Origin: Candidatus Saccharimonadota bacterium | GTDB taxonomy: Bacteria > Patescibacteriota > Saccharimonadia > QS-5-54-17 | Direction: 5' to 3' | Assembly: GCA_050486185.1 (NCBI GenBank) | Contig: JBJHCT010000001.1 | Location: 178,866-242,865, forward strand | DNA length: 64,000 nucleotides | Part shown: positions 9,608-42,866 of the stretch, piece after piece | Layout: every line of letters begins with the position of its first letter | Numbering within the stretch: the stretch's first letter is position 1 | The notes under the pieces: model-generated | What the model was told of the DNA's origin: nothing | Seen by the model: only the letters and a program-made list of their open reading frames with translations | Database searches by the model: none | Program-made: the position numbers and the translations under genes

Positions 9608-10191
9608 ACTGCTTGCCTACCTTCTAGCGCTCTACTGAGGGTGATTTGATCGGCATATTCAAGGTCACTGCCCATCGGTAGACCCCTAGCCAGTCTAGTA
9701 ATCTTAACTTCTGGCAACATCTGGCGGATATAGTGGGCGGTTGCTTCTCCTTCTACACTAGGATTGGTAGCTAGAATCAACTCCTCTATATCACCTTCCT
9801 CTACTCTACTCTTCAAACTCTCTAAATTTAGATGTTCTGGACCGATGCCATCTACCGGTGAAATAATGCCGCCTATGACGTGGTAAACCCCCTCAAAGCT
9901 ACCGGCTCGCTCTATGGCTATGACGTCTAGGGCGTCTTCTACGATAGCGATGATGCCTTGATCTCTTTTGGGGTTCTCACAGATATTACAGGTATCCTCA
10001 CTAGTTAGGTTGTAGCAACTCTGACACTCTTGAATGTTGATGTGAAGATCACTTAGAACTTCTGATAGTCTCTTAGCTTCGCCTGCACCTTTTTTGAGTA
10101 TCGACATAGCTAACCTCTCGGCCGTCCTAGGGCCTACACCTGGTAGTTTATTTAACTCTACAACTAGATCTTCAAGGGCTTTAGGTAGCAT
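9604..10191 (-). CDS. recR: recombination protein RecR
   Basis: LPGVGPRTAERLA helix-hairpin-helix, C4 zinc finger CQSC...CNIC, Toprim region. Confidence 0.95.
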   Translation of the reverse strand: MLPKALEDLVVELNKLPGVGPRTAERLAMSILKKGAGEAKRLSEVLSDLHINIQECQSCYNLTSEDTCNICENPKRDQGIIAIVEDALDVIAIERAGSFEGVYHVIGGIISPVDGIGPEHLNLESLKSRVEEGDIEELILATNPSVEGEATAHYIRQMLPEVKITRLARGLPMGSDLEYADQITLSRALEGRQAV

Positions 10192-10202
10192 TAGCTATTT
10201 CT

Positions 10203-10478
10203 TTAAAATCCCAAGTTGCCTAAATCTGCACTAGCAGACTTCATCTTATCAGCAGCTACTTGTTGTGACTTATTGATCGCTTGAGTGATGGCTGATTCTA
10301 GCCATTTCTCTAGTTTAGCTATATCATCGGTTGCTTCAGGGTCAATAGTTACTTTTTTGACTTTTTGTTCACCGGTAATCTGTACTGTTACAGCGCCATC
10401 TCCAGCGCTAACTTCGACGACCTCTTTACTCAGTTCTTTTTGTAGTTTGCGTAACTGCATAAGTTGTTTGGGATTCAT
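10203..10478 (-). CDS. ybaB: YbaB/EbfC nucleoid-associated protein
   Basis: 91-aa protein in the conserved position upstream of recR. MQLRKLQKEL...VTVQITGEQKVKKVTIDPE pattern. Confidence 0.85.
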   Translation of the reverse strand: MNPKQLMQLRKLQKELSKEVVEVSAGDGAVTVQITGEQKVKKVTIDPEATDDIAKLEKWLESAITQAINKSQQVAADKMKSASADLGNLGF

Positions 10479-10547
10479 ATATTTACCTCTTAATTTAATC
10501 TTTCACTACATTATATCAAGCCTGGAGCTTCTAGGCTAAGTACGCTT

Positions 10548-12119
10548 CTATTCAGTTATGACGTAAAACAGTACTTTGCTTACTATGAGCTCCGAGAATC
10601 GCTTCTCTGCCTGGGCGGTATCTATCTCTAGCTTATCAGCTAAAACTAAAGACTCCTCATTCGCAGCTAATAGGATAGTTGCTTGATCTGATATATCTAT
10701 ACCATCTTCATAGTAGCTAACGTCAATATCACTGCGTTCAAACAGTAGATATTGAATCGGCAGCAGGCTTTGTTCATCAGCTATTACTAAATATTGCTGA
10801 CCTGCTTCTTCCTCTGGCTTTTCCTCTAATATATACTGAGCCATTTCATAGCTATGTTCATAACTAGCTTCGATTGCCTCTTTAGAGTTAGCCCAAGCTA
10901 CGAAGTAGAGGTTGTAGTTGTAAAAGGCGCTGAAACCTACCGATAGTACGATGATAGTAGCACCGATATGCCAAGCTACTACGTTGAATGGGAATACGCC
11001 GCGCCAACGCATTAGTAGTTCACTTAAACCAACTGCTGCTAATAGGTAGATAATCGGCATGGCTGGAGCTAACATTGTAGCGCTAGGAGCTAGCCCTGGC
11101 TCTAAAGTGACCGCTACTATTACAGTGATAGTTAGCAGGATGATTAAACTAGCGTAACGTAAGTTGCGCCATTTCGTAAAAGCTAGAATCAATCCCAGTA
11201 TGAAGAGAATACCGGTAAATGCATTTAAGTGAGCTGTTGTGGGTAGGTTAAACATATATGATGGATCGCCATTAATATGTAACATCATTAGCGTGCTCAA
11301 AAGAGCAGAGAACATATCAGTAAATCCAGTTAAACTAGCGTTAATGCCGCTACTAACTAGTGAGTAGATTGCCAGCGGTAGAGCCATAGCCATAGCTCCT
11401 AACAAAATGATAGCTAGCGGTTTATATACTCGTTTCAATCTATCTTTATGTACAAACCAGCTATAGGTTAATATAGCTAGAACAGATAACGGAATTATCC
11501 ATGTTAATGGATAGATATATAGACCTAGACCCGCTACTAGGCCGGTAGCTGTGTAATGTCTTGCCTTGTTGGTCTTAACCGCTATAGCTAGTAGCCACAT
11601 AGCTGTTGGTAGTATCAACATAGCTAGTGAAAAATCCATTCCCAGTCTGCTGATTTGAGCGGCCCAAGCCGAAGCTGCCATAAAGAATATAGCGATTAAG
11701 CCGGCTCTTTTGGAAAACCAGCTTTTAGCAGCTAGGTAGGTCATCACTACTACTACTATCGATAGTAGGGCCGGTATGATTCTCAGCATTAAGGCACTGG
11801 TGTTAGAAAATAGAGCCAACAGACTCTGTAGATAGATGAAGACTACTGAAGAACCCAATGCTCCTACCTCAGGAGCCATGAGGTTGCCAGACGCTATCTC
11901 TTTAGCTAGTAGCCCTATCTGGGCCTCTGCAGGGTAGATACCGACCGGCAATTGAGCTGATGGTGGCAATATTCCCCAGAGCCTAAATAGAGCAGCTACC
12001 ATCAAAGAGATAATTAGAATCGTCCACTCTCTATGATCTATCGCCCAATCCATGCCGGTTTCAACTAACCCTTGGGCTTTTTTAGCCAGGGTGGATAGTT
12101 GGTCAAACAATGTATTCAT
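10548..12119 (-). CDS. polytopic membrane glycosyltransferase (GT39/ArnT-like)
   Basis: 523 aa with about 10 or more predicted TM helices and a soluble C-terminal domain. The family call rests on architecture only. Confidence 0.45.
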   Translation of the reverse strand: MNTLFDQLSTLAKKAQGLVETGMDWAIDHREWTILIISLMVAALFRLWGILPPSAQLPVGIYPAEAQIGLLAKEIASGNLMAPEVGALGSSVVFIYLQSLLALFSNTSALMLRIIPALLSIVVVVMTYLAAKSWFSKRAGLIAIFFMAASAWAAQISRLGMDFSLAMLILPTAMWLLAIAVKTNKARHYTATGLVAGLGLYIYPLTWIIPLSVLAILTYSWFVHKDRLKRVYKPLAIILLGAMAMALPLAIYSLVSSGINASLTGFTDMFSALLSTLMMLHINGDPSYMFNLPTTAHLNAFTGILFILGLILAFTKWRNLRYASLIILLTITVIVAVTLEPGLAPSATMLAPAMPIIYLLAAVGLSELLMRWRGVFPFNVVAWHIGATIIVLSVGFSAFYNYNLYFVAWANSKEAIEASYEHSYEMAQYILEEKPEEEAGQQYLVIADEQSLLPIQYLLFERSDIDVSYYEDGIDISDQATILLAANEESLVLADKLEIDTAQAEKRFSELIVSKVLFYVITE

Positions 12120-15827: not shown

Positions 15828-16424
15828 TCATCGTGTCACCACTCTCCATCCAAAAACTCGCGTATTACCAGATGGATTATACAGTTCCAGTTTCATGCTC
15901 GATGCAGCCTTAGCTGCAAACAAAGCACTTAGGCCAAATGAGTCACCATTGGCGGCTGTACCATCAGACACTCGACCCAGCGATGAAGTAGTTCGATTTA
16001 TTGCCACTGTGTCATCAATCGTTAGGCGTACGCCTACACCAAAGCCCTGGATCGATCCACCAATCAGCTCAACTGGCACGGCAATATCAAAGATTGTGTG
16101 ATATGAGCTTGCTGATACTGACTGAGAAGTACCTTCGTGAAAGGTTAGCTCTCCTGCGTCTGCGGCTGTGATTGGTAGTACTACAGACTCCCCAATCTGC
16201 CCCTCAACCCATTGCTTATTAGCAACATCAGTGTCATTGACTGGATCTGCTACTTGCAATCTACCCCATTCATCATAGGCTGCTAGCCTACTACCTCCTG
16301 CTGTTGTTCCATCATGTACTCTAAGAGTTTTATTAGTAGTATCTACTGTAACTTCTCTAGCTGCTCCAGTGAAGCTATCGTTATCTGTATTACTACCACC
16401 TCTTAGTTGTACTTGGTCGGGCAT
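15828..16424 (-). CDS. tail-fibre-like protein, Mtd-N-like conserved N-terminal module + unique C-terminal domain (paralog P1)
   Basis: MPDQVQLRGGSNTDNDSFTGAAREVTVDTTNKTLRVHDGTTAGG...DPVNDTDVANKQWVEG is shared with four other ORFs in the window. Confidence 0.8.
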   Translation of the reverse strand: MPDQVQLRGGSNTDNDSFTGAAREVTVDTTNKTLRVHDGTTAGGSRLAAYDEWGRLQVADPVNDTDVANKQWVEGQIGESVVLPITAADAGELTFHEGTSQSVSASSYHTIFDIAVPVELIGGSIQGFGVGVRLTIDDTVAINRTTSSLGRVSDGTAANGDSFGLSALFAAKAASSMKLELYNPSGNTRVFGWRVVTR

Positions 16425-16493
16425 AATCTACCTTTTTATATATAACCCTTATACTAAACCAAATACTCTGGAGTAGTCAATTTTAAGATCAAA

Positions 16494-16527
16494 TAAAAAA
16501 ACCACTACCCTTTTAAAAGTAGTGGTT
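16494..16527 (-). terminator. rho-independent terminator after rplL
   Basis: Minus strand reads accactac-loop-gtagtggt followed by TTTTTTTATTT. Confidence 0.6.
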
Positions 16528-16561
16528 AATTACCCCCTAACCCTAAAGAAGTTTTTTAGCC

Positions 16562-17020
16562 CTAGGCTAGCTCTACGCTAGCACCAGCTTCTTCTAGCTT
16601 AGCTTTGGCTTCTTCAGCTTCTTCCTTAGGCGCGTTTTCTTTAACTGCCTTTGGAGCGCCATCAACTATAGCTTTACTTTCAGCTAGGCCTAGTCCGGTA
16701 ATTTCACGAACTGCCTTGATGACGTTGATCTTGCTAGCACCAGCGTCAGTTAGAGTGATAGTAAACTCACTCTTTTCTTCTGCTGCGCCACCTTCAGCGT
16801 CTCCACCAGCTGCTGGAGCAGCGGCAACTGCCATAGGAGCAGCTGCTGATACACCGAAGTGCTCTTCTAGAATCTTAACTAGTTCGCTTAGATCTAGAGC
16901 GCTCAAGCTTTCTATATCTTTAACTATACTAGCAAACTTTTTAGGTATCTCTACCTTAGTTTCTTCTTTAGTCTCTTTAACTTCCTTAGTATCTTTAGTT
17001 TCTTTCTTATCTTCTGCCAT
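16562..17020 (-). CDS. rplL: 50S ribosomal protein L7/L12 with K/E/T-rich N-terminal extension
   Basis: C-terminal [28 protein letters not shown]...[17 protein letters not shown]. Confidence 0.95.
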
Positions 17021-17048
17021 TTTAATCTCCTTATTTCTTAGTATTAAA

Positions 17049-17573
17049 TTAACTTTTAGCTTGGGCCGCTTTATCTAGTACTGTAACTAGACCTCGCAAG
17101 TTGCCCGATAGTACACCAACAAAGCCAGATAGTGGCGCGGCGATAGTGCCAACAAGCTGAGCTTGCAACACTTCTTTGGCCGGTAGATCAGCTAGTCGCT
17201 TGATCTCCTCAGCCGATAGTACTGTTCCTTGATCATCTATAGCCATGATCGGCTTTAGACTCTCATGTTTCTTGGCGTGTTCTGAGATAGTTTTAGCTAC
17301 TGCAACTGGATCGTTGTAGCCAAAAGCCATAACTACTGGGCCCTCTAGCTCGGATAGGTCCACATCTTTATGGGTTTCAGATACGGCAATCTTCAACATA
17401 GCGTTTTTAACTACTCTGAAGTTACCGCCTTGTTCCTTGATGGCCTTTCGAAGATTCTGAGAATCTTCTACAGATAGGCCGGTGTAGCTAGATAGAACAC
17501 TTAGACTGCTTTTGCTAAGCTCATCTTTGATATCGGCTACTTGAGCCTCTTTTGCTTGTCTGGATATAGCCAT
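17049..17573 (-). CDS. rplJ: 50S ribosomal protein L10
   Basis: Lies immediately upstream of rplL. Typical L10 N-terminus ([18 protein letters not shown]). Confidence 0.9.
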
Positions 17574-25499: not shown

Positions 25500-25589
25500 T
25501 CAAATATCCCAGTGACTGTCGAATGGTTCCGGGTTGCCTTGCATCTCGAAAGTTCCCGCGTCGAGGTCACAGACGATAAGCACGGTCAT
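25500..25589 (-). CDS. 29-aa mini-ORF at the end of the high-GC block
   Basis: Hand translation gives MTVLIVCDLDAGTFEMQGNPEPFDSHWDI. The ATG is preceded by TAGGAGGACACC, where TAG is the stop of the upstream gene. Confidence 0.3.
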   Translation of the reverse strand: MTVLIVCDLDAGTFEMQGNPEPFDSHWDI

Positions 25590-25598
25590 GGTGTCCTC

Positions 25599-26459
25599 CT
25601 ACGGCTCGATTGGATAGCGGATGTAGGCGACCCCGCGTCCACCGCGACCCGAAAAGGGACCTGTGTTACCAGCCGCACCGCCGCCACCTGCGCCTGTACC
25701 ATGCGTTCCGGCACCGCCTGTGGGAGACGCATCGCTACCTCCTGCGCCGCCGCCGCCAGCACCACCGGCACCGCCAGCATCACGACCGCCCCCGCCGCCG
25801 CCACCGCCGCGAATGACGCTCGACCCGGTGAAGTCGGATGACTCCCCGGCCCCACCGGCACCACCTGTCGTCCACGTCGGGCCGTTCGCCCCCGCCGCCG
25901 AGGTTCCACCGCCACCGCCGCCCGAGTCGTCAGCCGAGCCGTCGCCACCGTCGTTCCCTTGACCTGATGATCCACTGCCCCCGGTTGAACGAGATGCTCC
26001 ACCGCCTCCTGAACCTCCTGAGCCACCAACCTGCTGCCCCGAACCAAAAGTACCCCCACCACCGCCGCCACCAGTTGCAGTCACACCCGCAAACGTCGTG
26101 TTCGAGCCTGCATTACCTCGCCCACCGCCGGTTACACCGGCACCTTCTGCACCGACCACCACGGGGTAGACGGAAGCCGCGACCGGGACACTGCCCGTGC
26201 GCCGACCACCGGCACCGCCACCGCCACCGCCACGGATACCCGAAGATCCGCCACCAGCGCCGCCTCCAGCGACCAGGTAATACTCGACTTCTTCGTCCGT
26301 ACCCGGATCTAGAACCGTAAAGTTGGCTGACCCCGCCGCCGCGAACGTATGAAGCCTATACTGCCGACCGTCGATGGTGATGGTCGACTCGGTGCCGCCA
26401 GTTGCCGAGACAGAAACCCACACATCAGACGCAATGATCCCGCGACGAAGCAGCCGCAT
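25599..26459 (-). CDS. glycine-rich tail-protein-like protein (high GC)
   Basis: FTVLDPGTDEEVEYYLVAGGGAGGGSSG...GGGGGAGG and long G-rich tracts, as in phage minor-tail or glycine-rich-domain proteins. The ATG at 26459 overlaps the P2 stop (TGATG). The ORF track's alternative start is 26492. Confidence 0.65.
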   Translation of the reverse strand: MRLLRRGIIASDVWVSVSATGGTESTITIDGRQYRLHTFAAAGSANFTVLDPGTDEEVEYYLVAGGGAGGGSSGIRGGGGGGAGGRRTGSVPVAASVYPVVVGAEGAGVTGGGRGNAGSNTTFAGVTATGGGGGGGTFGSGQQVGGSGGSGGGGASRSTGGSGSSGQGNDGGDGSADDSGGGGGGTSAAGANGPTWTTGGAGGAGESSDFTGSSVIRGGGGGGGGRDAGGAGGAGGGGAGGSDASPTGGAGTHGTGAGGGGAAGNTGPFSGRGGRGVAYIRYPIEP

Positions 26460-27007
26460 CAGGTGACCGCCTGTGCGCCGGTCATAACCCACTCGTTCGT
26501 AGCGTGCTTCGTGAGCACCGCCGTGCCGTACCGGTCGAGCGTCCCCGCTAGACGAACCGTAACCCCAGAGCCACCCACGACGGTCACGCCACCTGCACCG
26601 GCCGCATAGACCTCGATCACACTGCCCACCACAAACGCGACCGACGAGTTAGGCGGGACAGTGACAGTCACCGCGGCGGTATTGGTGAACCGCTTGACCG
26701 TCCCCGCGTCGGCCAGGGCGAGTGTGTAGGTCGTGCCCGATTCGTCAGAGAGCGCGACAGACGCGACAGAGTCGCCAATCTGTCCATCTACGTAGCCCTT
26801 GTTGGCGATATCAGCATCATCGACAGGATCGGCTACTTGGGCGCGACCCCACTCGTCATAGACTAGGAGCTTATGCCCACCAGCTGTTGTTCCATCATGT
26901 ACTCTAAGAGTCTTATTAGTAGTATCTACTGTAACTTCTCTATTAACGCCAGTAAAAGCATCGTTCTCTGCTTCGGTTCCACCTCTTAGTTGTACTTGGT
27001 CTGGCAT
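26459..27007 (-). CDS. tail-fibre-like protein, Mtd-N-like N-terminal module (low GC) + high-GC C-terminal domain (paralog P2)
   Basis: MPDQVQLRGGTEAENDAFTGVNREVTVDTTNKTLRVHDGTTAGG. Base composition switches inside the ORF near 26860-26890. Confidence 0.8.
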   Translation of the reverse strand: MPDQVQLRGGTEAENDAFTGVNREVTVDTTNKTLRVHDGTTAGGHKLLVYDEWGRAQVADPVDDADIANKGYVDGQIGDSVASVALSDESGTTYTLALADAGTVKRFTNTAAVTVTVPPNSSVAFVVGSVIEVYAAGAGGVTVVGGSGVTVRLAGTLDRYGTAVLTKHATNEWVMTGAQAVT

Positions 27008-32121: not shown

Positions 32122-32197
32122 TGGCAGGGGTACCAGGATTCGAACCCGGACTACGACTTTTGGAGAGTCGTGTGCTAGCCGTTGACACTATACCCCT
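32122..32197 (-). tRNA. tRNA-Trp (anticodon CCA)
   Basis: Hand-folded: acceptor AGGGGTA/TACCCCT, anticodon arm CGACT-CTCCAAA-AGTCG, T-arm CCGGG-TTCGAAT-CCTGG, encoded CCA. Confidence 0.85.
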
Positions 32198-32903
32198 TCA
32201 ACTCACTAAATTCAGTATAAATCATTTCTAGTAACTTTCCGAGTCTCCTATCTAGGTATCTTATACTAATGCACCCTGGATAGTTGATACGCTTCGTTTT
32301 ACCGGCATGCTTCTTTAAGTAAGGTTTATGGAACTGATTTATTGGTATTTTTGTTACTTGTGACCAATATTCTGTCTGTGTAAGCGCATCATGATAGCTA
32401 TGTAAATGTATTAATGCTCTAAACTTAGATTCATCTAAATCGAAACACTCCCTTAAATAGCCCATGAATATTCTTACCATATTTGGATCAGAGTTAGCGA
32501 ACTGTATTCCTGCCGATATATCCTTACCCCCTTCACACCAAAATAGCATTGAGCATACTAGTTTTTTGTGAGATATATCTAGATTTATGTTTTTAGCAAT
32601 ATTTCTGGCAGATAAAGTAATTTCTTGATCTCTAGCAAGCTTTCTTTCCTTATTTATAGTTGCTAATTTATTGATATTATCTCTTTGTGTATTCCGGATT
32701 TTATGATTAGAAAAGTCTATACCATTTGAACTAAGCTTTATATCTTTAGTCCATGCATAGGCTGTAGACTTGGCAATATCAAGTTCCTGTGCGATTTCTG
32801 AATAGAAAAAACCTTGTTTTCTTAGCGTTACTGCTTCTTTTTTTATTTTCGAACTATAGCTCACTAATAACATAACCTCTTTATATAAGAAATTATACAG
32901 CAC
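32175..32903 (-). CDS. HTH + LAGLIDADG-like (homing-endonuclease-like) protein; 3' end overlaps tRNA-Trp
   Basis: N-terminal HTH (YSEIAQELDIAKSTAYAWTKD). LFWCEGGKD and NSDPNMVRIFMGYL resemble degenerate LAGLIDADG-type domains. The last 23 nt lie inside the tRNA. Confidence 0.4.
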   Translation of the reverse strand: MLYNFLYKEVMLLVSYSSKIKKEAVTLRKQGFFYSEIAQELDIAKSTAYAWTKDIKLSSNGIDFSNHKIRNTQRDNINKLATINKERKLARDQEITLSARNIAKNINLDISHKKLVCSMLFWCEGGKDISAGIQFANSDPNMVRIFMGYLRECFDLDESKFRALIHLHSYHDALTQTEYWSQVTKIPINQFHKPYLKKHAGKTKRINYPGCISIRYLDRRLGKLLEMIYTEFSELKGYSVNG

Positions 32904-33269: not shown

Positions 33270-33932
33270 TTAGGTCGTGATTCCTAAATCAACTACCATC
33301 TGCCAGACTGGGCGTACAGGATCCCCTACAGTGAAGGTTCCAACAGCAGGATTCCCGCGTGTCTTGAGCGTCATAGGTGAACCTGTCCCTACAAAAAGAT
33401 GTTCACAATAGGCAGAAACATTGCCCGATGCATTTGCGGCGTTATAGATTGCGACTTGCTGTTGGCCGTTCGATCCGTTAGTGATAGTCATATTGCCGCG
33501 ACCAGCAGTTGATCCGGTTAGGACTACCGCGAAAGCCCGATAGGCATATAGGCGGCCAGTCTCGGTATTAAACGTGAACTCAGAGCCAACTAAATCGACA
33601 GAGGCTCCTTCTGAAACAATCTGTTGTGTAGTACGAATATTAAACGCAAATCCTCCTGTACCCCCAGATGTTGCAGATACTACACCGTCGGGCTTGGGAG
33701 TAATAACCCCATCCACATAGCTCTTGTTAGCTACATCAGTGTCATTAACTGGATCTGCTGTTTGCAGCCTACCCCATTGATCATAAGCTGCTAGTTTACT
33801 TCCACCTGCTGTTACTCCATCATGTACTCTAAGAGTCTTATTAGTAGTATCTACTGTAACTTCACGTTGTGCTCCTGTGAAGTTATCATTATCTGTGCTG
33901 CTTCCACCTCTTAGTTGTACTTGGTCGGGCAT
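33270..33932 (-). CDS. tail-fibre-like protein, Mtd-N-like N-terminal module + unique C-terminal domain (paralog P3)
   Basis: The family start MPDQVQLRGGSSTDNDNFTGAQREVTVDTTNKTLRVHDGVTAGG lies at 33932. The 23-aa upstream extension in the ORF track is AT-rich and absent from the other paralogs. Confidence 0.8.
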   Translation of the reverse strand: MPDQVQLRGGSSTDNDNFTGAQREVTVDTTNKTLRVHDGVTAGGSKLAAYDQWGRLQTADPVNDTDVANKSYVDGVITPKPDGVVSATSGGTGGFAFNIRTTQQIVSEGASVDLVGSEFTFNTETGRLYAYRAFAVVLTGSTAGRGNMTITNGSNGQQQVAIYNAANASGNVSAYCEHLFVGTGSPMTLKTRGNPAVGTFTVGDPVRPVWQMVVDLGITT

Positions 33933-34068
33933 AGTGTGTTTACTACCTTTTATAGAATTATATATCATAAGCATAATACTAAATTTATTACTGTTAGACA
34001 ATCTAAAATAAAATCTATCAAACTACTTCTATGGAGTTTGATAGTAAGTTGGTTATAATATTGTCTGT

Positions 34069-34143
34069 GCCCTGATAGCTCAGTGGTAGAGCGCTTCCAT
34101 GGTAAGGAAGAGGTCGCGAGTTCAATCCTCGCTCAGGGCTCCA
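34069..34143 (+). tRNA. tRNA-Thr (anticodon GGT)
   Basis: Acceptor GCCCTGA/TCAGGGC, anticodon arm CTTCC-ATGGTAA-GGAAG, T-loop TTCAATC, encoded CCA. Confidence 0.85.
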
Positions 34144-34217
34144 TATTAAAATAAATAGTTTTTGCTATAATCAGAAGCTGTTAGTATTCGTTTCTTTCCT
34201 GATGATACAATTATTAC

Positions 34218-34628
34218 ATGTCCCTATGTAAGAATTGCAGTACAGGATTAAACAGATTATCTAGTGTTTATTGTTCTAATAAATGCCAGAAAAATTACGA
34301 ATATGCTACGTACATTAAAAAGTGGAAACAAGGTAAAGTTACTGGTAGCAGAGGGGTTGATGCTAAGAATATTTCTAGGCATATTGTTAGATACCTAATC
34401 AGCAAGTATGAAGGTAGATGTGTAGAATGCGGCTGGAACAAGCTTCATCCAGTTACAGGTAACGTTTTACTAGAAGTAGATCATATAGATGGTGACTCGG
34501 ACAATAATCAGGAAGAGAATTTGCAGTTATTGTGTCCAAATTGCCATTCACTTACTAGTACATACAAAAATCTTAATAATGGTATGGGCAGAGAATGGAG
34601 AAGGTCTAAGTATATAAAATCTTCTTAG
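34218..34628 (+). CDS. HNH endonuclease
   Basis: N-terminal Cys-rich region and VDHIDGDSDNNQEENLQLLCPNCHS (H-N-H motif). Confidence 0.8.
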   Translation: MSLCKNCSTGLNRLSSVYCSNKCQKNYEYATYIKKWKQGKVTGSRGVDAKNISRHIVRYLISKYEGRCVECGWNKLHPVTGNVLLEVDHIDGDSDNNQEENLQLLCPNCHSLTSTYKNLNNGMGREWRRSKYIKSS

Positions 34629-34636
34629 TGTTTTTT

Positions 34637-34712
34637 GCCACCTTAGCTCAGTTGGTAGAGCAACGCTCTTGTAAAGCGTAGGTCGTCGGTTCGAGCCCGA
34701 CAGGTGGCTCCA
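34637..34712 (+). tRNA. tRNA-Thr (anticodon TGT)
   Basis: Acceptor GCCACCT/AGGTGGC, anticodon arm ACGCT-CTTGTAA-AGCGT, T-loop TTCGAGC, encoded CCA. Confidence 0.85.
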
Positions 34713-34728
34713 TAAATAACATACATAT

Positions 34729-34815
34729 GCCAGGGTAGCGAAGCGGCCAAACGCATCTGACTGTAAATCAGACGGCTTCATGCCTTCGGGGGTTCGAATC
34801 CCTCCCCTGGCACCA
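34729..34815 (+). tRNA. tRNA-Tyr (anticodon GTA), long variable arm
   Basis: Acceptor GCCAGGG/CCCTGGC, anticodon arm TCTGA-CTGTAAA-TCAGA, long variable arm, T-loop TTCGAAT, encoded CCA. Confidence 0.85.
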
Positions 34816-34821
34816 CATAAT

Positions 34822-34851
34822 TTGACTGTTGTGCCCTAACTACCCTATTAT
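34822..34851 (+). promoter_or_regulatory. putative sigma70-type promoter of P4
   Basis: TTGACT (34822-34827) - 18 nt - TATTAT (34846-34851). Same architecture as the other paralogs. It starts 7 nt after tRNA-Tyr. Confidence 0.35.
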
Positions 34852-34906
34852 CTAAGAATAACCAGTATTTATACTTTTTTTATATAACCAAAGGTAGATA
34901 ATAATC

Positions 34907-35587
34907 ATGCCCGACCAAGTACAACTAAGAGGTGGTACAGAAGCAGAGAATAATAACTTCACAGGAGCAGCCAGAGAAGTTACAGTAGATACTACTAATA
35001 AGACTCTTAGAGTACATGATGGAGAAACAGCAGGAGGAAGTAAACTAGCAGCTTATGATCAATGGGGTAGGCTGCAAACAGCAGATCCAGTTAATGACAC
35101 TGATGTAGCTAATAAGCAGTGGGTTGAAGGGCATGTTAGTGGTGCTGCTACTCGTCGCGCACTTGTGATTCGCGATGATGTTCAAACAATCCCTAATGCC
35201 ACCACTACAGCAATGATATTCCAGACAGAGGTTTATGACGACGATGGCATGTTTGATATCGGATCACCAACCATGCTTGTTGTGCCATCCGGTGCGTCGA
35301 AAGTACGTGTGTCCGCTAGCGTGGTATGGGGAAGTAATGCAGACGGTCTGCGACAAGCGTTTATTGAACGCGACACTGGTGCAGGATTTACTGCGAGCTA
35401 TAACGGAGTAGCCCGGTTCGCAATGGACCCCGGGACTTCCAATCAGGCTTACTGGACAATGGCGACTGCCTGGATTGCATGTGATCCAGGTGATAAGTTT
35501 CAATTAGCTGTGCATCATACACGAGGAACCACTCTGCAAATGCAAGGCAGTGGTCTAACATGGATGATGATGGAGATATTAACATAA
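34907..35587 (+). CDS. tail-fibre-like protein, Mtd-N-like N-terminal module + unique C-terminal domain (paralog P4)
   Basis: MPDQVQLRGGTEAENNNFTGAAREVTVDTTNKTLRVHDGETAGG. The C-terminal part has a C1q/TNF-like beta-sandwich-type pattern (weak impression). Confidence 0.8.
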   Translation: MPDQVQLRGGTEAENNNFTGAAREVTVDTTNKTLRVHDGETAGGSKLAAYDQWGRLQTADPVNDTDVANKQWVEGHVSGAATRRALVIRDDVQTIPNATTTAMIFQTEVYDDDGMFDIGSPTMLVVPSGASKVRVSASVVWGSNADGLRQAFIERDTGAGFTASYNGVARFAMDPGTSNQAYWTMATAWIACDPGDKFQLAVHHTRGTTLQMQGSGLTWMMMEILT

Positions 35588-35658
35588 GGATAATAGATAA
35601 TCCTCATCAATCCTAACTTAGCTTTAATACACGCCACACTAAACCCATCGCAAAAGTA

Positions 35659-36267
35659 TTATGCTGGCATATTCCTAATCTGTTCTCTGACTTCCTCAGC
35701 CTTTTTGTACTGTTTAGCATTTTCATAAGCTTCTAGTAAGTATTCTAGATTTCTAGGGCTAGGGTCTTCTTCTACTACGTCTTCTAATATATCTACTACT
35801 CGTTTATGGTTCTCCATTTTCTGCAATACTTTAGCAAATACCAACATTCTTTTTACGGTCGGCTCTAAATCGATAACTTTTTCTAGTGCCGTAGCGGCCT
35901 CCTCTAGATTGCCGGTTCTAAACTGCAATACTCCTAGGTTGTACAAACTAGCTACTGAAGGAGCCAGTGATGAGGCGATGTCTAAACAGGCTATAGCATC
36001 ATCGGTTCTATTCATACGTGAATACAGTAAACCTAAGCGGTTATATGCTGCTGTGTTTTTTGGATCGTACTTTAATATCTTTAGCAACGCTCTTTCGGCG
36101 CTTTGGTACCTGCCTTTTTCTATAGCAGTCTCTGTATAGCTCCAAAAGCGCTTTATAGCTTGAGTCATTTTGGGAGTTTTAATATCTTGCATGTAGTATT
36201 TTTGGTATCTTTTGACACCTATAACTACCAAGACCATAGCTAATATAAGTAGGCTAATTTCCGCCAT
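35659..36267 (-). CDS. TPR-repeat protein with N-terminal TM anchor
   Basis: TM helix followed by repeated A..Y..LG..Y......A TPR-like units. Confidence 0.65.
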   Translation of the reverse strand: MAEISLLILAMVLVVIGVKRYQKYYMQDIKTPKMTQAIKRFWSYTETAIEKGRYQSAERALLKILKYDPKNTAAYNRLGLLYSRMNRTDDAIACLDIASSLAPSVASLYNLGVLQFRTGNLEEAATALEKVIDLEPTVKRMLVFAKVLQKMENHKRVVDILEDVVEEDPSPRNLEYLLEAYENAKQYKKAEEVREQIRNMPA

Positions 36268-37084
36268 CTACAACCCCTGCGTGATTATTTGCTAATGCGA
36301 CTGTATCTAGTATATAGCGCTTATTAACATTCGTCACCATCAATTCACTTGATTTAATAGTTGCAATCGATTTTTCTAACCAATCTTGATTACCTGCGTC
36401 ATTCTCTAGCATATATCTAGCGTATAGGACGATTTCATCTAATACTTCCGGTAGGTATTCTTGCAAGTCTTTAGCTGCTTTAAGCCTAGAGCTAGGCTGG
36501 CCACTTAGTAGCTGCTCAATTAATTGGTATCTTTCTAGAACCGCTTCTTTAACCTCTTCATCAGCAAGTATGCTGACTAAACGACCTGGCAAGTATCCAC
36601 TCATAACTAGAGCAGCTTCTAGCATGCCTTGATCAACGTCTTTAAACTCTTCACTAGCCCAATCAATCATTTCAGATTTACTTGGTGGTGGGAAATATAG
36701 GGCTTGGCTGCGTGATCTAATGGTCGGCAGTAACGCATAGAGGTCACTGGTGACCATAATGACAGCTACACTCTCTGGCAGCTCCTCAAGTGTCTTTAAA
36801 AAAGCGTTCTGAGCCGCTGCTGTCATCTTTTCAGCTGATTTAATTAATATATAGACAGTCTCTTTATGCCACTGCTTTAGTTTTAGCTGCTTGGTAAGGT
36901 ATTTAATCCCCTCTACTCCGATAGAGCCTTCCTCACCAAATATCTGCACGTTATTTACTCCTAAAGTCTCAACTATAGAGGAGCTCTTACCTATGCCTCC
37001 TGGCCCATAGACTATATAGACTCCAGGGGTCTTGATAGTATCGAGTACCGCATCGCTCTTAGAATTTAACAACATCATCGGCAC
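36254..37084 (-). CDS. holB: DNA polymerase III delta-prime-like clamp-loader subunit
   Basis: GPGGIGKSS P-loop and TIRSRSQALYF (SRC-type motif). Confidence 0.7.
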   Translation of the reverse strand: MPMMLLNSKSDAVLDTIKTPGVYIVYGPGGIGKSSSIVETLGVNNVQIFGEEGSIGVEGIKYLTKQLKLKQWHKETVYILIKSAEKMTAAAQNAFLKTLEELPESVAVIMVTSDLYALLPTIRSRSQALYFPPPSKSEMIDWASEEFKDVDQGMLEAALVMSGYLPGRLVSILADEEVKEAVLERYQLIEQLLSGQPSSRLKAAKDLQEYLPEVLDEIVLYARYMLENDAGNQDWLEKSIATIKSSELMVTNVNKRYILDTVALANNHAGVVDGGN

Positions 37085-37138
37085 CTATTATATAGCTAAA
37101 AGAGGTAGCAGCCAAAACGGGCTACATTTCTTAGATAC

Positions 37139-37822
37139 TTACAAAGACTGCCAGTAGTTGGCCAGTTCATCTGGTAACTCGCTAGTGTAGCTAACCGACT
37201 CACCGCTCATATCGACAAAAGCGATACTTTTAGCATGCAGAAACTGTCTACTCAAACCCTTGGTCGATACTCCATATATGCGGTCCCCTAGTACCGGGTG
37301 GCCTAAGTGAGCTAGATGCACTCTAATTTGATGAGTTCTGCCCGTTAAAATCCTAACTCCCAGTAAACTTTTACCGTCTTTTTCTTCCAAGACTTCGTAC
37401 TCAGTGATAGCCATCTTACCACCAGATCTGACCTGTCTCTTGGCAGGATCCTTTGGCGATCTAGCTATGGGCCACTCGAGTCTTGCTTGTGGCAGTTTTA
37501 ATTTACCGCTAACAGCTGCTAGGTAGTATTTCTCTACCTGCCGGCTTTTAAATAGGCTTTGTAGGTATTCTCTACTTTTAGTATTTTTAGCAACCAATAA
37601 CACTCCAGAAGTATCTCTATCTAGTCGATGAACTATGCCTGGTCGATCAGAACCTGGATCATCTATTTGATCTGCTAGTATCTCTGCGACCGATAAGCCT
37701 ACTGTATCAGATGAGGCTGCATCAGCTTCCCTGCCAGGATGCACCAACATACCGGCCGGTTTATTTACTACCAGGTAATCTGGAGTTTGAAAGATAATTT
37801 CTAGATTATGAGCCATATACAT
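37139..37822 (-). CDS. RluA-family pseudouridine synthase
   Basis: HRLDRDTSGVLL catalytic motif and GRTHQIRVHL. Confidence 0.85.
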   Translation of the reverse strand: MYMAHNLEIIFQTPDYLVVNKPAGMLVHPGREADAASSDTVGLSVAEILADQIDDPGSDRPGIVHRLDRDTSGVLLVAKNTKSREYLQSLFKSRQVEKYYLAAVSGKLKLPQARLEWPIARSPKDPAKRQVRSGGKMAITEYEVLEEKDGKSLLGVRILTGRTHQIRVHLAHLGHPVLGDRIYGVSTKGLSRQFLHAKSIAFVDMSGESVSYTSELPDELANYWQSL

Positions 37823-37864
37823 CAGCTAGTATAGCAGTTGAAACCTAAGGGCTTTAAGTAGGTT

Positions 37865-38281
37865 CTAACGCTTAGTGAACTGTGGAGCCTTACGAGCTCG
37901 CTTGAGGCCGTATTTCTTTCGTTCTTTGACTCTAGAGTCACGTTTGATGTATCCAGCTCGTTTCAGAGTCGATCTAAGCTGATCGTCCATAGCTACTAGG
38001 GCGTTAGCTATAGCTAGTCTGGCTGCATCGGCCTGGCCACTAATTCCGCCACCTTTAATTACCAAAGTTATGCGGTATTTATCTTCTTTATCAAGTAGTT
38101 TTAATGGCTGAGCGATTCTTTGTGATAGTTCTTCGTGGCCGAAATATTCTTCAGCCTTTTTATCACCTACCCAAATACCTTTATCTCCAGAGCTATATAG
38201 CCTAGCAGTCACTACTGCTTCTTTGCGTCTACCGATTCCGTAATAGTATTTCATATGCTTATGACCTTTCTTTCTTACCAT
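37865..38281 (-). CDS. rpsI: 30S ribosomal protein S9
   Basis: YYYGIGRRKEAV and GGGISGQADAARLAIANAL...KRARKAPQFTKR. The true start may be the internal ATG at 38254. Confidence 0.9.
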   Translation of the reverse strand: MVRKKGHKHMKYYYGIGRRKEAVVTARLYSSGDKGIWVGDKKAEEYFGHEELSQRIAQPLKLLDKEDKYRITLVIKGGGISGQADAARLAIANALVAMDDQLRSTLKRAGYIKRDSRVKERKKYGLKRARKAPQFTKR

Positions 38282-38708
38282 CGAGCTTTAGCTCCTCTGG
38301 TTGCTGAGCTTCGTGAGTATGCTCTGCCCCTGGGAACACTTTTAGTCTCAACATTCTACCGTCCCGTAGTTTATTGCTGGGCAGCATTCCTCTAACTGAG
38401 CTGATTATAACTTGGGTGGAGTCTTTATCTAGCTGCTCACTCAAAGTACGTGACTTGATGCCTCCTGGGTAGCCACTGTGTCTGTAGTAGGTTTTAGCAG
38501 CTAACTTATTACCGGTAGTTTTAACCTTATCAGCGTTAATAACGATAATGTGATCACCACCATCAATATGCGGTGTGTAGCTAGCTTTATGTTTACCCAT
38601 CAAGTATTTAGCAACTACAGTTGATAGTCTACCTAACACTACGTCTTTAGCATCAACAACATACCATTTTCTAGCAACTTCAACCGGTCTTTGTGAGTAA
38701 GTTTTCAT
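38259..38708 (-). CDS. rplM: 50S ribosomal protein L13
   Basis: KWYVVDAKDVVLGRLST...YYRHSGYPGG. Confidence 0.95.
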   Translation of the reverse strand: MKTYSQRPVEVARKWYVVDAKDVVLGRLSTVVAKYLMGKHKASYTPHIDGGDHIIVINADKVKTTGNKLAAKTYYRHSGYPGGIKSRTLSEQLDKDSTQVIISSVRGMLPSNKLRDGRMLRLKVFPGAEHTHEAQQPEELKLDGKKERS

Positions 38709-39238
38709 TATTTATCCTCTTTCTTTTTGGCAGCAGAAGCCTTCTTAGCAGCAGGTTTCTTGGTTGTCGTTTTAGTTGCCGTCTTAGCGGTTGATTTAGC
38801 AGCGGTAGTCTTTTTAGTAGTGTCGGCTGTCTTTGTTGTAGATTTAGCAGTAGTAGCAGGCTTAGTAGCTGGTTTCTTGCTGTCTTCTTTAACAAAGCTA
38901 ATTGTAGCCATCTCGGTATTATCACCTCTGCGCCAACCGGCCGACTCAATCCTTAGATATCCGCCAGGTCTAGTCTTAAACCTAGGTCCTAAATCAGAAA
39001 ACAACTTATCTAGTGACTCTTTGGTGCTGATTTTACTCAAAACCAATCTGCGGTTGTGTTGGTTATCAACCTTAGCTTTAGTTATCAGCTTCTCAACGTA
39101 AGGTCTTAGAGCCTTAGCTTTAGGCTTAGTGGTCTTAATACTCTCATGAGTTATTAGAGACTCAGTTAAAGTCTTTAATAGGGCTCGGCGCTGATCGCGC
39201 TTTCTGGATAGTTTATGTCTTTGCGCTGGCAGTGACAT
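38708..39238 (-). CDS. rplQ: 50S ribosomal protein L17 with about 60-aa K/T/A-rich C-terminal tail
   Basis: HRRLVLSK and GGYLRI L17 core, followed by a low-complexity tail. Confidence 0.9.
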   Translation of the reverse strand: MSLPAQRHKLSRKRDQRRALLKTLTESLITHESIKTTKPKAKALRPYVEKLITKAKVDNQHNRRLVLSKISTKESLDKLFSDLGPRFKTRPGGYLRIESAGWRRGDNTEMATISFVKEDSKKPATKPATTAKSTTKTADTTKKTTAAKSTAKTATKTTTKKPAAKKASAAKKKEDK

Positions 39239-40146
39239 TATTTTAGCTCCAGTTCCTTTAGCTTACTTATAACTTCATCTAGGGCCTTAGCGCCGAAGCC
39301 CTTTAGGCCTTTAAGGTCAGAATCATTCATGGCAGCTAGTTGCTTCAGTGTGACTACACCGTTTTTCTCTAATGCATTGAAAGTGCGTTGTGAAAAGTCT
39401 AGATCAGCTACGCTGATGTTTAGATCTTCTGGCTCTTCTTCTGGCTCTTCTACTTCGGCTACAGCATTGCCACCGGCTATGACGTTGAATTGGTTAACTA
39501 GGATAGTAGAGGCTTGTTCTAAGGTGTCTCTAGGATCGATAGTACCATCAGTTTCTATACTGATAATTAGCTTGTCTAGGTCGGTAACTTGTCCGACACG
39601 AGTGTTCTCTACCTTGTATCTAACCTTTTTGATAGGTGAGAATAGGGCATCAAGTCCGATCATGCCTACACCAAAGTTTCCAGCCTGCTCATCAACTGTC
39701 TGATAACCGCGGCCTTTCTCTACCTGTAAGCTCATCTCTAGTTTAGATTTGTCGTTATCTAAAGTAGCAATGATTTGATCAGGGTTGACTACTTCAACCT
39801 CAGAACTACCTTCTAAATCAGCAGCCGTTACAGGGCCTTTGCCCTTTTTGCTGATTTTAAGAGTTTGTGGTTCATCGCTGTAGACTTTGAATCTAATCTT
39901 CTTTAGGTTCAAGCTGATGATCACTACATCTTCTTTAACACCATTTAGAGTGGTGAACTCATGGGTTGCTCCATCAACACTAAAGGCAGTAGCTGCTGCA
40001 CCGCTTAGTGAGGAAAGTAGCACTCGACGCAGTGAGTTGCCGATAGTAACACCGAAACCCCTGTGTAAAGGCTCGATAGTGTACTCACCGACAAAATCGC
40101 TTTCGTCTATAATCTTAACTTCTGGCAAATGAATATTGTATTGCAT
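39238..40146 (-). CDS. rpoA: DNA-directed RNA polymerase subunit alpha
   Basis: PLHRGFGVTIGNSLRRVLLSS N-terminal domain and C-terminal domain with RTFNALEKNGV. Confidence 0.95.
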   Translation of the reverse strand: MQYNIHLPEVKIIDESDFVGEYTIEPLHRGFGVTIGNSLRRVLLSSLSGAAATAFSVDGATHEFTTLNGVKEDVVIISLNLKKIRFKVYSDEPQTLKISKKGKGPVTAADLEGSSEVEVVNPDQIIATLDNDKSKLEMSLQVEKGRGYQTVDEQAGNFGVGMIGLDALFSPIKKVRYKVENTRVGQVTDLDKLIISIETDGTIDPRDTLEQASTILVNQFNVIAGGNAVAEVEEPEEEPEDLNISVADLDFSQRTFNALEKNGVVTLKQLAAMNDSDLKGLKGFGAKALDEVISKLKELELK

Positions 40147-40168
40147 ATATTTCTCCTTCTTTTCTTGC

Positions 40169-40774
40169 TTATCTTGAGTAAAACTCTACTATTAATTGTT
40201 CATTGATCTCAGGCTCTGCCTCATCACGATTAGGTAGACCTGTTACTTTAGCGCTCATCTTACTTTTATTAAAAGAAAGCCAACTTAATTCTGGAGATCC
40301 TTCAATAGTAAGTGACTGGAAGTAAGTGTTTTTCGCACTTTTCGGTCTAATCGTAATCTCATCACCTGGCCTGACTCTAATAGAAGGTATATCTACGCGG
40401 CGTCCATTAAGCATAATGTGGCCATGAGTAACTAGCTGACGAGCTGATTGACGAGAAGTAGCTAGTTGCAGCCTATAAACTACATTATCTAGACGTCTTT
40501 CTAGGTATTGCAATATCAATTCACCGGTTACGCCTTCGCCTTTTTCGGCCTCTTTAACTAATTTACGGAACTGCTTTTCAAGTAGTCCATAGATTCTTTT
40601 GACCTTCTGCTTTTCACGTAACTGCGTAGCATACTGGGTAGGCTTTGATCTTCTAGCACCGGCATTTTCTCCCGGTAGGGACTTTCGCTTGGCCATAATC
40701 TTGTGAGCTTTAGGATGCAAAGCTACACCTTCTCTACGACTTCTTTTAGCAATCGGCATTAAATCTCTAGCCAT
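40169..40774 (-). CDS. rpsD: 30S ribosomal protein S4
   Basis: YATQLREKQKVKRIYG and S4 domain (RLDNVVYRL...ARQLVTHGHI). Confidence 0.95.
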   Translation of the reverse strand: MARDLMPIAKRSRREGVALHPKAHKIMAKRKSLPGENAGARRSKPTQYATQLREKQKVKRIYGLLEKQFRKLVKEAEKGEGVTGELILQYLERRLDNVVYRLQLATSRQSARQLVTHGHIMLNGRRVDIPSIRVRPGDEITIRPKSAKNTYFQSLTIEGSPELSWLSFNKSKMSAKVTGLPNRDEAEPEINEQLIVEFYSR

Positions 40775-40777
40775 ATC

Positions 40778-41173
40778 TTAAACCCTTCTAGCCTTTCTAG
40801 GCCTACAGCCGTTGTGTGGCACACCTGTAACGTCTTTGATACTAGTTACATTGATATCAGTATTCATCAGCGCTCTAATGGCTGCTTCTCGGCCCTGGCC
40901 AATACCTTTAACAAACACCTGAACCTGCTTCATACCGAAAGGCTTAACTTTCTCAGCAGCATTCTCACTAGCTAGCTGGGCGGCATAGGCAGTGCCCTTA
41001 CGAGATCCTTTAAAACCACTAGCACCAGCTGAGGAAGAAGCTAGTGTATTACCCTTGTTATCGGTAAAAGTAACTATGGTGTTATTAAAACTAGCGAAAA
41101 CATGCACCTGGCCGGTTGGGACAGATTTCTTCTGCTTTGCTTTAGTAGTAGTCTTTTTTGTAGCTTGAGCCAT
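40778..41173 (-). CDS. rpsK: 30S ribosomal protein S11
   Basis: [15 protein letters not shown]...[16 protein letters not shown]. Confidence 0.95.
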
Positions 41174-41205
41174 TAAATATTACCTCTTTTATACCTTTCT
41201 TGATC

Positions 41206-41592
41206 TTAAGTTGGCGTTGGAGCCTTATTTTTCGCACCACCAACTGTCATTCTCTTGCCTCGTTTAGTTCTAGCGTTGGTCTTGGTTCTTTGTCCTCGTA
41301 CCGGTAGTCCTGCTTTGTGTCTCATACCTCTGTATGAGTTGATTTCTCGAAGACGAGAAATACTAACTCTAATACGTTGAGCAAGATCTCCCTCAACTTC
41401 GTAATCTTTATCGATAATTTCACGGATCTTACTTAGCTCTGTTTCTGATAAATCTTTGATTCTGACATTCTCATCTACTTTAGCTTTAGCTAGTATCTTT
41501 TGAGAGTTTGCTCTACCAATGCCGTAAACGTATGTCAGCGCAATAACTGCTCTTTTATCATCTGGAATGTTAACTCCTGCTATTCTAGCCAT
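41206..41592 (-). CDS. rpsM: 30S ribosomal protein S13
   Basis: [14 protein letters not shown]...[23 protein letters not shown]. Confidence 0.95.
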
Positions 41593-42206: not shown

Positions 42207-42866
42207 CTACATCTTCTCTGCAACAACAGTAATTACCCGATTCCTAAAAGTACTAGTGGCCGAAGATGTCGCATACTTTGCGGTAAACGTAGTAGTACCG
42301 GGGTTCAGCCCGCTAAGCAAAAACGTTCTGGAAGCCGTACCATGTCCTGACCCGGCCCAGGAATTCCCTATAGCACTACGGCTTTGCGCTGTCAGCCCTC
42401 CCCAAGTATCCCCAGCGGCGTATGTATTTGTTCCAGTCGCTGCAAGGTTCATTGACGTCACAACACCAGCACCCGAACCCCACATAAAGGCACTCAGCGA
42501 TACCAGGACTTTACCAGATGCTGGTACGTCGATTTCAATAGAAGGACCAACAGTGGCTAAATCAGTAAAAGATGTGCTAGTGGTTGACTCTTGTGCTGCT
42601 GTTTCTGAACCCTCGAAGCTTATTCCAGACTCTTCAACCACCCCATCTACATAACTCTTGTTAGCTACATCAGTATTATTGACTGGATCTTCTACTTGCA
42701 GCCTACCCCATTCATCATAAGCTGCTAGTCTACTTCCTCCTGCTGTTTCTCCATCATGTACTCTAAGAGTCTTATTAGTAGTATCTACTGTAACTTCACG
42801 GCTTACTCCAGTGAAGCTATCGTTATCGTTTGCTGTACCACCTCTTAGTTGGACTTGGTCGGGCAT
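42207..42866 (-). CDS. tail-fibre-like protein, Mtd-N-like N-terminal module + unique C-terminal domain (paralog P5)
   Basis: MPDQVQLRGGTANDNDSFTGVSREVTVDTTNKTLRVHDGETAGG. Located between secY and infA. Confidence 0.8.
   Translation of the reverse strand: MPDQVQLRGGTANDNDSFTGVSREVTVDTTNKTLRVHDGETAGGSRLAAYDEWGRLQVEDPVNNTDVANKSYVDGVVEESGISFEGSETAAQESTTSTSFTDLATVGPSIEIDVPASGKVLVSLSAFMWGSGAGVVTSMNLAATGTNTYAAGDTWGGLTAQSRSAIGNSWAGSGHGTASRTFLLSGLNPGTTTFTAKYATSSATSTFRNRVITVVAEKM

Follow-up and report, generated by a model that had tools for sequence, protein, structure and literature searches.

Why do two genes of an ultrasmall bacterium begin with nearly the same sequence, point away from each other and enclose a cluster of tRNA genes? 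The window, i.e. the whole stretch of 64,000 nucleotides (nt) analysed here, belongs to the chromosome of a Candidatus Saccharimonadales bacterium (TM7, within the Candidate Phyla Radiation, CPR), of the small-genome type with ribosomal-protein operons. In this window the initial ~77 codons of the divergent genes P3 (33270..33932, minus strand, 220 amino acids (aa)) and P4 (34907..35587, plus strand, 226 aa) form the two arms of an inverted repeat. Is the repeat a device for turning over the segment between the arms? Or is it the trace of something else? A sequence-only reading of the window had suggested ongoing conversion or inversion. The answer favoured here, with a probability of about 0.7, is that the repeat is a by-product of the structure of a gene family and of gene conversion between its paralogs, and not a dedicated device. 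The repeat itself is ordinary, a textbook outcome of inverted paralogs homogenised by gene conversion; the gene family is the more interesting finding.

Geometry of the repeat and the case for gene conversion

A repeat search of 32-37 kb returned a single long inverted repeat, with arms of 232 nt each at 33701-33932 (minus) and 34907-35138 (plus), 88% complementary and separated by a spacer of 974 nt. Repeat search and alignment agree that the left arm is the initial 232 nt of P3 from its ATG at 33932 and the right arm the initial 232 nt of P4 from its ATG at 34907, in both cases the N-module that the two genes have in common. The sequence-only reading had placed the arms at 33710-33932 and 34907-35135, with 975 nt enclosed, which is accurate within a few bases, and it had rightly seen in them the 5' modules of two paralogs that point away from each other and differ in their C-terminal tips. 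Aligned from their ATGs, P3 and P4 need no gaps and the mismatches are patchy. There are none in columns 1-29 (0/29), 14 of 40 in columns 30-69 (35%), only two of 137 in columns 70-206, the core (98.5% identity), and 11 of 25 in columns 207-231 (44%). The earlier estimate of about 150 nt at about 98% was thus essentially right. The core lies at 33727..33863 (minus) in P3 and at 34976..35112 (plus) in P4, and would represent a gene-conversion tract according to the permutation test described below. It ends in the longest perfect run, 77 nt covering columns 130-206 (33727-33803 and 35036-35112). Is the repeat real? Run SRR31311414 was assembled independently in Logan; the contig matches the window at 100% identity over 35083-41391 and ends, at 35083, exactly 30 nt (k-1) inside the 77-nt perfect repeat. 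Such a break shows that the repeat exists in the reads and not just in this one assembly.

What produced the patchiness? P3 and P4 agree at 31 consecutive polymorphic sites, and in a GENECONV-style permutation test (76 polymorphic sites, 20,000 permutations) no run as long was obtained (p<5e-5, pairwise and globally). Outside the core the two genes go separate ways. Over columns 30-67 they are as far apart as any two copies (66% identity), and P4 has a run in common with P2 (pairwise p=3e-4); over columns 211-231 the partner of P3 is P5 and that of P4 is P1 (17/21 each). Mosaic tracts and phylogenetic incongruence, the marks of paralogs under conversion, are therefore both found. Codons that encode the same amino acid in P3 and P4 tell the same story, with two synonymous differences among 45 in the core against 7-13 for pairs with P1 or P2. 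The sequence-only reading had called the identity of this pair exceptional, and measured against P1 and P2 it is. Measured against P5 it is not: P5 differs from P3 and from P4 at two core codons each, and being equally close at core synonymous sites it makes the pair less exceptional than claimed.

The homogenisation is not confined to P3 and P4. Columns 1-29 and 68-117 are nearly invariant across P1-P5, including P2, which is otherwise 65-72% identical. Any two copies in the window differ at no more than two of the 50 positions of block 68-117. Compared with the copies in GCA_040904145.1, the single comparison genome, the same block gives only 39-46 matches of 50. The two copies in that genome are identical in columns 30-67 (38/38) and show six differences in block 68-117. 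A different block is homogenised there, so the invariance in the window is specific to this genome and does not reflect a constraint that holds for the DNA or RNA everywhere. Similarity within the genome is thus higher than between genomes, synonymous sites included, as concerted evolution predicts (with one comparison genome). A conserved RNA element in the arms was considered and rejected; an Rfam scan gave no structured RNA besides four tRNAs, and the invariant blocks vary in another genome.

P2 (26459..27007, minus, 182 aa, upstream of secE-nusG) carries the record of a further exchange. GC content at its third codon positions (GC3) stays at 0.08-0.23 in the first 117 nt and reaches 0.4-0.9 from codon 40, the edge of the invariant block, and phage matches to P2 begin at residue 40. 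The GC3 jump and the phage similarity start at the same codon, which argues that recombination within the N-module put a foreign tip on a resident 5' end. Three lines, namely the mosaic test, the concerted evolution of the family and the chimeric P2, speak for the earlier proposal of ongoing conversion.

How could these pieces fit together? P3 and P4 were inserted in opposite orientations on either side of a native tRNA-Thr/Thr/Tyr cluster, and as a consequence their 5' modules form an inverted repeat. The near-identity of the core would come from non-reciprocal homologous recombination, i.e. gene conversion, between P3 and P4, and this would be one case of a concerted evolution of the N-module that extends over the family in this genome. 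In favour of the wider process are the short conversion tracts with recurring boundaries, the mosaic make-up of the paralogs relative to each other, and the foreign tip of P2. Genes for recombination are available, as RecR is encoded in the window and RecO in a relative. Replacement of cassettes of the pilE/pilS type was rejected, since the copies have no common 3' element and each has its own start codon; by eye, every P copy has a promoter-like motif of the TTGACT/TTGTCT type upstream.

Several points weigh against this explanation. The closeness of P5 just described means that part of the similarity between P3 and P4 could come from recent common ancestry of a P3/P4/P5 sub-family. Conversion is read from a single consensus assembly, near-identical repeats can be mis-threaded by short-read assemblers, and the Logan contig reaches no further than 30 nt into the perfect repeat. 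No close strain with the P3/P4 pair turned up; the nearest relatives have only ~57% aa identity in a neighbouring gene that resembles the one for the DNA polymerase III delta' subunit (holB-like). The ancestral orientation of the locus, discussed in the next section, rests on one close outgroup (L083), with partial support from another locus (L177), and more distant Saccharimonadales carry other tRNA orientations.

The tRNA cluster and the question of inversion

Which genes were at this locus first? The sequence-only reading had listed the contents of the spacer correctly, as ARAGORN, Rfam, Pfam and PHROG confirm: tRNA-Thr(GGT) at 34069..34143, a free-standing open reading frame (ORF) for an HNH endonuclease of 136 aa at 34218..34628 (Pfam HNH E 5.9e-7; PHROG HNH families), tRNA-Thr(TGT) at 34637..34712 and tRNA-Tyr(GTA) at 34729..34815, all on the plus strand. 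The word 'island', applied to these tRNAs, did not hold. Loci were compared along the direction RluD-like gene, holB-like gene, tetratricopeptide repeat (TPR) gene, and 'opposite' and 'co-oriented' are used relative to it. In the nearest relative found, L083 (GCA_040876925.1), which has ~57% aa identity in the holB-like gene and whose TPR gene and rpmG are visibly close in sequence, the TPR gene is followed by four small genes (opposite), tRNA-Tyr, tRNA-Thr(TGT) and tRNA-Thr(GGT) (all opposite), rpmG and tRNA-Trp; P3, P4 and the HNH gene are absent. In the window, the TPR gene (35659..36267, minus), the conserved right flank, is followed by P4 (opposite), by Tyr, Thr(TGT), HNH and Thr(GGT) (all opposite), and then by P3, rpmG, ORF242 (32175-32903, minus, 242 aa) and Trp; rpmG (ribosomal protein L33; 32932..33111, minus), with its ortholog in L083, is the conserved left flank. 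The tRNA-Tyr genes of the two genomes are identical at 84 of 87 nt. As order and orientation of the tRNAs are the same, the tRNA cluster is native and the assembled orientation is ancestral for the clade. P3, the HNH gene and ORF242 are insertions, and P4, likewise an addition, fills the slot of the four small genes of L083. P3 sits between tRNA-Thr(GGT) and the rpmG promoter, and of the ancestral spacer the half next to rpmG, with the motif GCGTAAAATACAC, persists downstream of the P3 stop codon.

Other relatives carry other arrangements. Between TPR and rpmG, the Thr(TGT)-Tyr pair and Thr(GGT) are found in at least three strand arrangements among Saccharimonadales (L008, L021, L083, L178 and the window). 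In L008 and L178, Tyr and Thr(TGT) are opposite and Thr(GGT) is co-oriented, and in L021 the three tRNAs are all co-oriented. L008 and L021 are two distant Saccharibacteria loci from a contig scan anchored on the RluD-like neighbour, and tblastn for P-family arms found none in either. Rearrangement of the locus thus appears independent of the arms. The tRNA cluster at TPR-rpmG is a small rearrangement hotspot, independent of the P genes.

Can the segment turn over all the same? Recombination within the perfect 77 nt could flip the 974-nt segment, and the promoters and the first ~43-69 codons (~40-70 for the arms as a whole) would then change places between the two tips, an exchange that the sequence-only reading had recognised for the arms. 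It had also placed both putative promoters within the bracketed segment, and consensus matches are indeed found there, TTGTCT-17-TATTAT 5' of P3 (33973..34001, minus) and TTGACT-18-TATTAT 5' of P4 (34822..34851, plus, 10/12 matches). The hexamers are well positioned for both genes, yet the number of sites in the scan is not above that in shuffled sequence. Because the segment contains the promoters and the N-modules but not the tips, both tips keep a promoter in either orientation. A switch function of the inversion is not supported: none is seen, and both genes are predicted to be expressed either way.

A population in which RecA-driven crossovers invert 33933-34906, so that the two orientations coexist and promoters and N-terminal segments pass between the tips, is nevertheless the alternative that survives best, although an unlikely one. 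In its favour, the 77-nt perfect stretch is embedded in a 137-nt tract with two mismatches. RecA recombination in E. coli has a minimal processing segment of ~25-50 bp, which 77 nt exceeds. RecR is encoded in the window, crossovers often accompany conversion tracts, and the tRNA genes at this locus have been repeatedly reoriented among Saccharimonadales. Inversion would disrupt no gene and should therefore be nearly neutral. An occasional RecA-dependent flip across the 77 nt is physically plausible. What stands in the way of a flip-flopping population? High identity had been taken as a sign of inversion, but reciprocal exchange swaps sequences without homogenising them; the identity argues for conversion and is silent on inversion. 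The comparison of orientation with relatives gives inversion no help either, as the assembled orientation is the one seen in L083, which lacks the arms. The tRNA reorientations elsewhere also occurred without P-family arms (tblastn, L008 and L021), and the Logan unitig merely breaks at the repeat.

Selection, programmed switches and known systems

If gene conversion is the favoured explanation, could the same pattern arise with no recombination at all? P3 and P4 would then be the youngest duplicates, with an N-module held constant by purifying selection on the protein. The N-module protein is strongly conserved across genomes, and columns 68-117 are invariant in all paralogs, as such selection would have it. 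But the identity extends to synonymous sites, the permutation test rejects a uniform spread of the differences, and in the stretches where P3 and P4 differ by 35% (columns 30-69) and 44% (columns 207-231) each sides with a different paralog. Groupings that change by segment in this way are beyond a simple duplication tree, and we consider this account improbable. Least credible of all is a programmed switch of the type of the Mu G-segment, the P1 C-segment or the shufflons, in which a site-specific recombinase selects the tail-fibre tip, for although the genes are tail-fibre-like (tail-fibre genes being the classical cargo of Gin/Cin/Pin/Min invertible segments) and the repeat lies in coding sequence near the junction of constant and variable parts, the layout is the opposite one, since the segment holds the promoters and N-modules and leaves out the tips, so that both tips are expressed either way, the arms are 232 nt of graded similarity in place of short defined crossover sites, and the only neighbours are the HNH ORF and an ORF with nothing but a helix-turn-helix (HTH) motif.

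Neither a serine invertase nor a tyrosine recombinase turned up when the flanking ORFs and most of those in 1-32 kb were scanned with Pfam, NCBIfam and PHROG (ORFs beyond 44 kb were not individually scanned); the families detected were HNH, HTH, TPR and housekeeping ones only. Like Mu G/Gin, P1 C/Cin, e14 P/Pin, p15B Min and the R64 shufflons, P3 and P4 carry their repeat within tail-fibre-like coding sequence near the boundary between N-part and tip. Unlike in those systems, no orientation would silence or select a tip, the arms are long and imperfect, and no invertase accompanies them among the ORFs scanned.

Which known systems are closer? Paralogs such as tufA/tufB of Salmonella and E. coli, and the rRNA operons, evolve in concert by RecA-dependent gene conversion. 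The tuf genes too are inverted paralogs whose synonymous identity is kept by conversion, their repeats could support chromosomal inversion, and the evidence is of the same kind, i.e. mosaic tracts and higher identity within than between genomes. In contrast to tufA/tufB, only the 5' ~210 nt of P3 and P4 are homogenised while the rest is unrelated, the tracts are very short and the genes lie 974 nt apart. Phage tail fibres (T-even gp37/38, P2/Mu/P1) evolve as mosaics through recombination at conserved N-terminal or shaft segments. The P genes resemble them in combining a conserved 5' module with interchangeable tips, in the sharp resident/foreign junction of the window's P2 gene, and in having tips that match unrelated phage tail families. 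They differ in being dispersed on a cellular chromosome near translation-machinery operons, not gathered in a phage tail module.

The third likeness is to Mtd of Bordetella phage BPP-1. Residues 1-51 of P1-P5 are 55-61% identical to the Mtd N-terminus, and Mtd chains in the PDB were matched at E 1.4e-11. The N-module as predicted by AlphaFold2 (AF2), with predicted local distance difference test (pLDDT) values of 84-92, superposes on PDB 1YU0-1YU4 over 48 residues at 2.3 Å, and the same entries are its top Foldseek matches. In both cases a constant N-terminal module is followed by a variable C-terminus, which in Mtd is the ligand-binding part. The differences are considerable: the P genes are chromosomal in a bacterium, multi-copy and 180-230 aa long, their tips gave no C-type-lectin signal in Pfam, and they vary between paralogs with unrelated tips where Mtd varies in one hypermutated region. 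A diversity-generating retroelement (DGR) in the window was rejected, as tblastn with BPP-1 Brt/Avd gave no reverse transcriptase and no Avd (best E 0.36), and blastn with the five tips no second copy there that could serve as template repeat.

The P family, its tips and its neighbours

How large is the family to which P3 and P4 belong? Five copies of the N-module were found in the window by tblastn and blastn, and there are at least nine on the same 264,553-bp contig. The genes are scattered among translation-machinery operons. Besides P2, P1 lies downstream of rplJ-rplL (15828..16424, minus, 198 aa), P3 upstream of rpmG and P5 between secY and infA (42207..42866, minus, 219 aa). The architecture is that of an N-module of ~75 residues, the first ~50 of which have the Mtd_N fold, with a different C-terminus resembling a tail-fibre tip in each copy. 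All five pass the Pfam gathering cut-off for Mtd_N (PF18454), scoring 40.4-50.4 bits against 26.3; P3 is matched at E 1.4e-12 and P4 at E 2e-13, P4 also by PHROG tail families. A degenerate N-module pattern run against metagenomes returned 28 contigs, most of them short and each with a single copy, which is uninformative on pairing, and the 87-nt tRNA-Tyr pattern gave no match in the same kind of scan. In practical terms, the P family is a source of contig breaks and possible mis-joins in assembly and annotation.

Where do the tips come from? Those of P1-P5 are mutually unrelated. The P4 tip matches the C-terminal parts of phage tail proteins, namely a Staphylococcus phage GP-PDE tail protein and tail proteins of a Caulobacter phage and a cyanophage, the P5 tip resembles minor tail proteins of Mycobacterium phages, and P2 from residue 40 resembles those of Gordonia phages. 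In tblastn against phages, the matches of P1 and P3 are confined to the N-module, with none for their tips. The idea that all tips come from actinophages was tried and given up; it holds for P2 and P5, does not hold for P4, and the tips of P1 and P3 are without phage match. In the AF2 model of P4, pLDDT is below 50 outside the N-module, which makes fold matches for the tip meaningless. Pfam gave no CLec or FGE match in P1-P5. Two further genes of the same contig, outside the window (P0022 and P0025, 364 and 367 aa), combine Mtd_N with a C-terminus that has a weak FGE-sulfatase/C-type-lectin-like match (for P0025, E 3.6e-4, below the cut-off); they give a weak hint of the full Mtd-like architecture typical of DGR targets.

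What might such a family do? The repeat can serve as a marker that homologous recombination actively shapes a multi-copy tail-fibre-like family in an ultrasmall, host-dependent bacterium. If the P proteins are determinants of host attachment, recombination in the 5' module would let a reduced genome diversify its host range at little cost. A bolder proposal, which we think quite doubtful, is that the N-module acts as a recombination handle with which epibiotic Saccharimonadales capture, shuffle and express phage receptor-binding tips, including those of phages of their likely actinobacterial hosts. The tips would dock through the common N-terminal adaptor on a cell-surface structure and thereby set the host range, and the P3/P4 repeat would be one visible trace of an active tip-exchange system. 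Hints in its favour are the chimeric P2, the actinophage-like tip of P5, the highly expressed neighbouring operons and the number of copies on the contig. Saccharibacteria that parasitise Gordonia are known (PMC11880426), which makes actinophage-like tips suggestive. This likeness fits only two of the five tips and comes from a phage database heavily biased towards actinophages. In the searchable literature, no description of an Mtd_N-headed family in Saccharibacteria was found; a preprint about a CPR pilus names a 'tail fibre-like protein' encoded near the pilus operon but does not analyse it (10.64898/2026.03.03.709456).

The foreign part of P2 belongs to a larger feature. Upstream of secE-nusG-rplKA, an island of ~1.35 kb (25550-26890) has 60-76% GC against ~42% for the genome. 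It contains P2 from codon 40 (26459-26890) and a glycine-rich ORF of 297 aa (25599-26492, minus; Pfam Gly_rich_2 E 4e-17, phrog_2295 E 2e-39). The island seems to have been acquired recently by horizontal transfer, from a donor of high GC content. In related metagenome-assembled genomes, Mtd_N and Gly_rich_2 occur in one fused protein (P0008, P0010).

The 5' leaders fall into two types. P2 (27008-27085) and P5 (42867-42945) have ~75-80 nt of upstream sequence in common, with TTGACT-N17-TA(G/A)TATA(G/A)A promoter-like elements and a small hairpin (AATCCATAAGGATT). The leaders of P1, P3 and P4 have only the ribosome-binding motif AAAGGTAG in common.

Relatives offer parallels at other places of the chromosome. 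The slot between secY and infA, usually that of adk and map, is occupied by a tail-fibre-like gene both in the window and in L083. The occupant in the window is P5, which runs in the direction of the operon; that of L083 (3979-4656) lies on the opposite strand, encodes 225 aa and has only the motif 'GRLQVADPV..D..N.GYVD' in common with P5. The comparison genome GCA_040904145.1 (L081) has two Mtd_N/Gly_rich_2 genes at 10001-10969 (plus) and 16330-17370 (minus), convergent, ~5.4 kb apart and flanking mraY-ftsW-murG, with N-modules 89% identical and a perfect block of 38 nt. Inverted pairs of the P family are therefore not unique to the window.

Three other genes deserve mention. The HNH ORF is wedged between tRNA-Thr genes that are only 50 nt apart in L083, and its top PHROG matches are phage HNH homing endonucleases; that double-strand breaks made by this enzyme could stimulate local conversion is pure speculation. 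ORF242 is inserted between rpmG and tRNA-Trp, its 3' end overlapping the tRNA by ~23 nt, and it is not present in L083, where the spacer between the two genes is 89 nt. It shows only a weak N-terminal HTH match (HTH_23 / HTH_Tnp_1), its C-terminal 150 residues giving no family match and no PDB match, and may be another insertion of the selfish or homing type, like the HNH ORF. Finally, a 271-aa ORF at 6333-7148 (minus) matches Phage Tail Collar (PF07484, E 1e-26) without Mtd_N, and represents a second tail-fibre-like type in the window.

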